Source: a virus
Direction: 5' to 3' (one strand)
Length of the DNA stretch: 64,000 nucleotides
Virus record (IMG/VR): IMGVR_UViG_3300031760_000017
In this document: positions 60,337-60,789 of the stretch, one piece after another
How the letters are laid out: the number at the start of each line of letters is the position of its first letter
How positions within the stretch are numbered: position 1 is the stretch's first letter
The notes under the pieces: generated by a model
Databases searched by the model: none
What the model was told of the DNA's origin: nothing
The model's input: the letters and a program-made list of their open reading frames with translations, nothing else
Made by a program: the position numbers and the translations under genes

Positions 60337-60789
60337 ATGGATATTGGAAGTGGTTCAGGTTATCCTGCAGCCTCATTAAGTAATTTTGCGCCGCATCCTT
60401 TTATTATAGATGGTATACCTTGCAATTCAATGGAAGGCTTTCTACAGTCTTTGAAATTTAAAAATATTGATATGCAAAAATATGTATGTTCTTTAGTTGG
60501 AAAAAGCGCAAAGTATAAAGGGAAAGATAAAAAATGGTGGAAAACGCAAACTCTGTATTGGCAAGGTAAAGAATACAAACGTGATAGTCAGGAATATCAA
60601 ATTCTTTTAAATAGAGCCTATAATGCGCTATATCAAAATGAAGGATTTAGAAAAGCTTTAGAAGCTAGCCGTCCGGCAATATTATCACATTCAATAGGAA
60701 AAAATGATCCTTCAAAAACAGTTTTAACTCAAGCAGAATTTGTGGGTCGTTTAATGAAGCTAAGAATGGGAAAAAAATTAGATGAATAA
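60337..60789 (+). CDS. NADAR-domain (YbiA/DUF1768-like) protein
   Basis: The motif SNFAPHPFIIDGIPCNSMEGFLQSLKF resembles the NADAR signature. Confidence 0.5.
   Translation: MDIGSGSGYPAASLSNFAPHPFIIDGIPCNSMEGFLQSLKFKNIDMQKYVCSLVGKSAKYKGKDKKWWKTQTLYWQGKEYKRDSQEYQILLNRAYNALYQNEGFRKALEASRPAILSHSIGKNDPSKTVLTQAEFVGRLMKLRMGKKLDE

Follow-up and report, generated by a model that had tools for sequence, protein, structure and literature searches.

The window analysed here, the whole 64,000-nucleotide stretch of IMG/VR virus record IMGVR_UViG_3300031760_000017, carries at 60337..60789 on the plus strand a gene for a 150-residue member of the phage gp30.3/AdfN family of NADAR proteins. Schuller et al. 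(2023) assigned bacteriophage T4 gp30.3 to the NADAR superfamily, within which it forms the "phage NADAR" family (PMC11543638). A 2024 study reported its guanine de-ADP-ribosylation activity in vitro (PMC11125620), and Johannesman et al. (Nat Commun 2025) renamed it AdfN, anti-DarT factor NADAR (PMC11257639 / PMC11825919). By homology, the window gene probably specifies an AdfN-type orphan antitoxin: a guanine-ADP-ribosyl DNA glycohydrolase that would counter a DarT1-type toxin of the host.

Family membership is clear. A Pfam search with the 150-residue protein returned one match: PF08010, "Bacteriophage protein GP30.3" (E = 2.4e-56; 189.8 bits, with a gathering cut-off of 36 bits). The alignment pairs protein residues 8-143 with profile positions 1-137 of 138, so that the match is full-length; T4 gp30.3 itself scores 237.5 bits against the same profile. 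In BLASTP the two proteins are 40% identical (E = 1e-32) and of similar length (150 versus 152 residues). A PHROGs search found phrog_652, a group of unknown function (E = 1.2e-44).

The first-pass annotation, made from the sequence alone, had assigned the protein to the YbiA/NADAR fold and named PF08719 (NADAR) as the family to search. The fold assignment stands, on a structure prediction, a fold search, and a weak profile match to YbiA, whereas the sequence family is PF08010: PF08719 gave no Pfam match even at E<=10. (In a control, Escherichia coli YbiA scored 133 bits on PF08719, and E = 0.004 on PF08010.) The link to NADAR is therefore made through PF08010, structure, and the literature. 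Profile-to-sequence comparison of the family with Protein Data Bank (PDB) entries gave YbiA as its sole match, a weak one (E = 0.17); hhalign against YbiA gave 79.5% probability (E = 1.5e-5) across the N-terminal motif and helices. A phmmer search of PDB with the single protein yielded chance matches to RanBP2 only (E>0.3). The best hits did not fall among the riboflavin N-glycosidases, the outcome that would have spoken against the assignment: in NCBIfam, TIGR02464 stayed below threshold at 16 bits, versus a cut-off of 73.7. PADLOC gave no match, and thus does not recognise the protein as part of a DarG-type defence.

The gene itself is real. Its frame runs from ATG to TAA over 150 codons, behind a Shine-Dalgarno-like AGGAG (60326..60330, plus strand) that lies 6 nt 5' of the ATG and is identical in the relative L003. 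The motif quoted by the first-pass annotation, SNFAPHPFIIDGIPCNSMEGFLQSLKF, occupies residues 15-41. Compared with a relative at a synonymous divergence (dS) of 0.17, the frame shows a single amino-acid change and a ratio of nonsynonymous to synonymous substitution (dN/dS) of 0.018; with more distant relatives the ratio is 0.05-0.21. The plus frame is thus under strong purifying selection. This low ratio, the PF08010 score, and the 4087 homologous clusters at 90% identity together exclude a chance open reading frame (ORF). An opposite-strand ORF of 72 residues (60360-60578) was dismissed as spurious, since strong purifying selection lies in the plus frame.

Residues essential to T4 AdfN have counterparts in the window protein. 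In the BLASTP alignment, E33 and K40 pair with T4 E36 and K43, seven residues apart; the E36A and K43A mutations abolish T4 AdfN function (PMC11257639). A third residue, H118, lies in ILSHSIG, which aligns with T4 VLKHSIA; it also falls opposite YbiA E125, one residue past ...PAKLV, once one more residue is added to the hhalign match. Across 150 representatives of the 50%-identity clusters, conservation is high: E33 in 149/156 domains, K40 in 147/157, and H118 in 140/144. The last-strand residue separates the NADAR families: YbiA has Glu there, DarG1 has Asp, and phage NADARs have His (PMC11543638; PMC11125620; PMC12945103). Of the catalytic Glu and Asp that had been suggested for checking, then, the Glu is present and accompanied by K40, but the third residue is His rather than Asp. 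As judged from these alignments, the active-site residues Glu-Lys-His are present.

An AlphaFold2 model built on 64 homologues has a mean predicted local distance difference test (pLDDT) value of 95.3 and a predicted template modelling (pTM) score of 0.91. The only significant structural neighbours of the model are three solved NADAR structures: 2b3w, E. coli YbiA (fold-search score 10.0); 8bau, a Phytophthora NADAR with ADP-ribose (9.9); and 8bat, a Geobacter DarG1-type NADAR (8.5). The next best match scores 4.0, and Foldseek ranks the same three at the top. These are also the matches reported for T4 AdfN (PMC11257639). As modelled, the protein has the NADAR fold, comprising the core domain only, without an N-terminal extension. 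Its C-terminal helix, residues 132-143, is intact and modelled at pLDDT 96-97, and the TxLTxxEF...LR motif of this region is conserved in the family. An RB69 adfN allele that lacks the last 15 residues (the last helix) is inactive (PMC11257639).

What such a protein does is best known from T4. AdfN is both necessary and sufficient for T-even resistance to DarTG1, and strips ADP-ribose from DNA in vitro (PMC11257639). All phage NADARs assayed so far share this activity, with DNA hydrolysis and phage rescue from DarTG1 shown for T4 AdfN and two NADARs of other clades only (PMC11257639). Membership in a family that experimentally reverses DarT1 guanine ADP-ribosylation, and rescues phage from DarTG1, supports the counter-defence role proposed in the first-pass annotation. 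The enzymatic activity and guanine specificity of the window protein would be those of T4 AdfN, transferred at 40% identity; its physiological target would presumably be a DarT1-like toxin of a probable Bacillota host. The model is as follows. A DarT1-type ADP-ribosyltransferase of the host would modify replicating phage DNA. The stand-alone, core-only NADAR enzyme, whose expression from a host-type promoter of its own would precede TAG suppression or do without it, would cut the N-glycosidic bond between ADP-ribose and guanine N2 in the DNA. With the adduct removed, phage replication and transcription could continue.

The reference to TAG suppression reflects the coding habits of the phage. 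The window is 30% GC, and TAG is read as a sense codon: read-through fuses fragments into ORFs of 2883 residues (71 TAGs) and 1563 residues (26 TAGs). In a RecJ-like gene, a TAG stands where a close relative has a Gln codon (KIDqLL versus KIDQLL), which indicates that the phage is recoded from TAG to Gln. In-frame TAGs occur in 23/50 ORFs, for example 18612-27263 (minus), 13604-18295 (minus), 37098-39383 (plus), and 58423-60204 (plus). The 71 fall in a tail/tape-measure-like gene; the endolysin gene has 14, an integrase-like gene 10, and the RecJ-like gene 8. The four tRNAs of the window (396-1395) do not include a suppressor. The NADAR gene was described at first as free of TAG, and correctly so: all eight of its Gln codons are CAA or CAG. 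The window as a whole is bimodal, with 27 TAG-free ORFs that include those for DnaB, primase, gyrase, ligase, and helicase. According to an idea in the literature, late genes are marked by recoded stops (bioRxiv 10.1101/2021.08.26.457843; PMC10607447).

Transcription signals lie just upstream. A hairpin followed by a U-run (60231..60288, plus strand; -24.6 kcal/mol, z = -6.1, with 0/200 shuffles folding as well) is a probable intrinsic terminator after the RecJ-like gene, and probably keeps the NADAR gene apart from the transcription unit upstream. Overlapping it is a candidate σ70/σA-like promoter (60278..60306, plus strand), found by consensus scan with 10/12 matches: TTGATT, a 17-nt spacer, and TATAAT, with a TG preceding the -10 hexamer. 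In the diverged relatives L025 and L026, a hairpin of different sequence stands at the equivalent position, and a TTGAC-17-TATAAT site at the same place. This recurrence fits a separate NADAR transcription unit read by host RNA polymerase. The promoter-like site and the absence of TAG would together point to early expression. Directly after the RecJ-like stop codon, at 60211-60220, stands the GC-rich palindrome GGCGCGCAAA, unusual at 30% GC; it is kept in L025 and L026 (with one A/G change in L026) despite strongly diverged flanks.

Several considerations weigh against this account. Zero TAG among eight Gln codons has P = 0.058 on its own, a suggestive value, given that TAG makes up 30% of Gln-type codons across the 23 TAG-containing ORFs. 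Moreover, the RecJ-like gene immediately upstream is a replication gene, and its eight in-frame TAGs mean that membership of the replication module does not by itself make a gene TAG-free. For both reasons, the absence of TAG was downgraded as proof of early expression. Promoter-like sites in this AT-rich region are no commoner than expected from shuffling. The host is a probable one, and a DarT1-type system within it is presumed. T4 AdfN is most effective on T-even (hydroxymethylated) DNA, and specificity may differ at 40% identity (PMC11257639). De-ADP-ribosylation by NADARs in vitro is not always protective in vivo (PMC11125620). Finally, Iyer et al. (2022) argue that most phage NADARs target soluble ADP-ribose derivatives (PMC9503650).

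This last argument leads to an alternative substrate. The enzyme might degrade soluble ADP-ribose-derived molecules (cyclic ADP-ribose isomers; NAD-derived immune signals or toxins), and so blunt TIR/Thoeris-type or similar NAD-based defences. Going by abundance and co-occurrence, Iyer et al. predicted such a main role for the NADAR, Macro, SLOG, and Nudix domains of phages (PMC9503650); the NADAR fold does bind free ADP-ribose, as in 8bau; and the phage depends on NAD+ through its NAD-dependent DNA ligase (46685-48691). The prediction is older than the experimental work, however, and the only experiments on the T4 gp30.3 family show a DNA guanine-ADP-ribose glycohydrolase and a DarTG1-specific phenotype. 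With no Macro, SLOG, Nudix, or NAD-salvage gene among the neighbouring genes scanned, a soluble target seems unlikely. RNA is another conceivable substrate, through reversal of guanosine ADP-ribosylation on tRNA or mRNA, or clearance of ADP-ribose by-products of RNA repair. Representatives of all NADAR families, the T4 enzyme included, remove guanosine-linked ADP-ribose from RNA in vitro (PMC12945103); Iyer et al. connect NADAR domains with RNA-repair systems (PMC9503650); and at 33779-36667 the window has genes for an RNA ligase, an AAA_33 kinase, and a metallophosphatase, alongside which the enzyme might act. Yet these lie 24 kb away, unlinked to the NADAR gene, which is embedded among DNA replication genes and adjoins a DNA helicase gene in its cassette. 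No KptA or 2H gene was present among the ORFs scanned, and an RNA substrate appears decidedly unlikely.

The remaining alternatives concern other partners. In T4, gene 30.3 lies a few kilobases from alt, an ADP-ribosyltransferase gene, and Iyer et al. note co-expression of NADAR and ADP-ribosyltransferase genes in T4-like phages (PMC9503650). The window protein might by this precedent be an antidote or regulator of an ADP-ribosyltransferase of the phage itself, in a phage-borne toxin-antitoxin pair or a self-regulation circuit. Its neighbours are the RecJ-like gene, an unannotated 80-residue ORF absent from close relatives, and the helicase gene; no ADP-ribosyltransferase or DarT-like gene is among the flanking genes, to which the scan for such domains was confined. 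Given this, the absence of a PADLOC match, and the action of T4 AdfN against a host toxin (PMC11257639), a phage-encoded partner is improbable. A YbiA-type housekeeping N-glycosidase, detoxifying reactive intermediates of riboflavin biosynthesis, is more improbable by far: the protein fails the family thresholds, and carries His at the last-strand position. The AdfN-type orphan antitoxin is thus the preferred reading.

The first-pass annotation also placed the gene in the replication module, as its neighbours confirm: DnaB, primase, RecJ-like exonuclease, superfamily 1 (SF1) helicase, and DnaE. The replication genes of the window follow the order of phage SPbeta: yorG-yorH-yorI(DnaB)-yorJ-yorK(RecJ-like)-yorL(polymerase). 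In SPbeta, yorK is followed directly by yorL, with nothing between; about 3.1 kb separates their homologues in the window. Hence the NADAR gene belongs to an accessory insertion inside the replication module (60205..63339, plus strand), delimited by the SPbeta comparison, window gene content, tblastn synteny, and TAG counts. The insert contains the NADAR gene, as first gene of the cassette between the RecJ-like and DnaE genes; the 80-residue ORF (60805-61047); the SF1/RecD-like helicase gene (61047-62228); and three small ORFs. All are TAG-free.

Relatives L003-L005, L025, and L026 carry the cassette in the same position, between RecJ-like and DnaE genes, and the NADAR-helicase pair occupies that slot in relatives whose NADAR proteins are 99% and 76% identical to that of the window. 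Elsewhere, in other phage lineages, homologues of 65-80% identity sit in unrelated contexts without the helicase. The pairing is therefore specific to one SPbeta-like lineage, always in the same slot, and adjacency was rejected as a sign of a functional link. The relationship between window and L003 changes just 3' of the NADAR gene (window 60805-62228 versus L003 6446-7633): NADAR is 99% and DnaB 99.8% identical, but the helicase only 73%, a sign of mosaicism. The 80-residue ORF is found in the window lineage only, and has no database matches. In L025 (7157-8227) and L026 (7939-8337), the slot also holds a family-2 glycosyltransferase gene or one resembling a nucleoside 2-deoxyribosyltransferase; next to the NADAR-helicase pair, DNA-modification functions are possible for these genes.

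Other features of the region and window merit mention. The DnaE gene is split by a GIY-YIG endonuclease gene (L007 9022-12453, on the source contig past the window end). Several GIY-YIG or homing-endonuclease-like ORFs of the replication region (42763-43452, 49147-50091, and 50902-51528) all have in-frame TAGs. The RNA-repair-like trio, whose ligase belongs to PF09414, is TAG-free throughout, and may be a counter-measure to anticodon nucleases. A subset of the TAG-free genes (1491-3014; 8913-11014, minus strand; and 30774-35017) has a GC fraction of 0.36-0.41, compared with about 0.27-0.31 elsewhere, and encodes Gln almost only by CAG, not CAA, a sign that these genes may differ from the rest in origin or in expression class. 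Within it, the ORF at 30774-32741 ends in TAG, with an ATG immediately after, at 32742, in the same frame. The resulting stretch (30774-33263) could be two genes or one 829-residue read-through product.

The host is probably a member of the Bacillota. SPbeta-like synteny, a DnaB protein about 40% identical to those of SPbeta-group phages (from Bacillus, Staphylococcus, Enterococcus, Lactobacillus, and Enterocloster), Shine-Dalgarno sites, and low GC all lead to this assignment. Contigs from genome collections were rejected as host evidence, because the relatives they contain (38-71%) come from metagenome-assembled genome (MAG) bins of unrelated phyla and are probably mis-binned phage contigs. 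A megablast search with 55000-64000 found no match among isolated phages, and thus no close cultured relative in that collection.

The gp30.3 family is present in 1509 isolated phage genomes, almost all of them T4-like phages of Gram-negative hosts; Johannesman et al. likewise describe the gp30.3 cluster as primarily in the T4 superfamily (PMC11257639). The closest isolated-phage homologues, at about 65% identity, are gp30.3 of RB43, of the Slopekvirus group, and of some Vibrio siphophages. The family also forms 1165 representative clusters at 50% identity. Tandemly duplicated gp30.3-type NADAR genes occur in L018 (934-1853), L019 (2937-3892), and L020 (7469-8414), on contigs binned to Akkermansia MAGs; their identity to the window protein is about 50%. 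Five representatives (P0130, P0155, P0184, P0190, and P0215) have the gp30.3 domain at the C-terminus of fusions with LGT, GDSL-lipase, LRR, or FtsW-like regions. These fusions were set aside as heterogeneous and without functional clue; they may be gene-calling artefacts rather than real architectures.

Comparison with characterised systems sharpens the assignment. The window protein shares with T4 AdfN its Pfam family; its length; the core-only fold; the Glu and Lys residues; the phage-specific His; and the intact C-terminal helix. Both genes stand alone, without a linked toxin. The window protein is nonetheless closer to the RB43, Slopekvirus, and Vibrio siphophage proteins, and the phage that carries it is not a T4-like myovirus but SPbeta-like and TAG-recoded, with a probable Gram-positive host. 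The gene lies between RecJ and DnaE beside an SF1 helicase, whereas T4 30.3 lies near DNA ligase. T4 AdfN prefers the modified DNA of T-even phages, and the substrate context of the window enzyme may differ.

DarG1, the antitoxin of DarTG1, belongs to the BC4488 family, as in Geobacter lovleyi (8bat) and the E. coli C7 NADAR. The BC4486/BC4488-type names go back to a locus tag of Bacillus cereus, which places such systems in the Bacillota. Unlike DarG1, the window gene has no adjacent DarT1 (BC4486-like) gene, and its product lacks the N-terminal extension (219 residues in 8bat versus 150), has His118 rather than Asp as the last-strand residue, and matches no PADLOC model. From E. coli YbiA (PF08719 / TIGR02464; 2b3w) it is set apart by similarity below the family thresholds and by replacement of the defining Glu with His; YbiA gives no protection against DarT1 in vivo (PMC11125620).

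A parallel comes from the human gut. In Phassvirus and its relatives there, gut phages that are TAG-recoded and SPbeta-related, Babkin et al. (2023) noted a "NADAR family protein" (PMC10607447). Phages of this type are siphoviruses of about 130-150 kb, near Spbetavirus, with a giant tape-measure gene, TAG suppression, and predicted Clostridia hosts (PMC10607447). The window phage is similar in kind and likewise has a NADAR gene, a likeness in general characters. It differs in GC content, at 30% versus about 44%. Moreover, one Phassvirus genome has a suppressed TAG in the NADAR ORF itself (PMC10607447), whereas the window gene is TAG-free.

In principle there is little new here: work on T4 AdfN between 2023 and 2025 had already established the enzyme family, the chemistry it performs, and its part in counter-defence. 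The finding that the gp30.3 clade is fixed in SPbeta-like, TAG-recoded metagenomic phages was partly anticipated by Babkin et al. (PMC10607447). A bolder scenario, doubtful as it stands, has the gp30.3-type NADAR leaving the T4-like myoviruses for TAG-recoded, SPbeta-like siphophages that infect Gram-positive bacteria of the gut, to become fixed as first gene of an SF1-helicase cassette between RecJ and DnaE. There it might act on unmodified DNA, against a guanine-directed or other base-directed ADP-ribosyltransferase other than the E. coli-type DarT1. It might also work with the helicase, which would expose ADP-ribosylated single-stranded DNA at the replication fork for cleaning.

The His-type (gp30.3) NADAR clade, described as mainly a T4-superfamily group, proves to be abundant in uncultured phages, and SPbeta-like, stop-codon-recoded gut phages carry the NADAR gene as a stable part of their replication module. 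A TAG-free counter-defence gene beside a TAG-containing replication gene offers a convenient case for examining whether recoding keeps early and late translation apart. Should the AdfN-type reading hold, it would imply that DarTG1-type guanine ADP-ribosylation defences act as a selective force on the phages of low-GC, Gram-positive bacteria in the gut.
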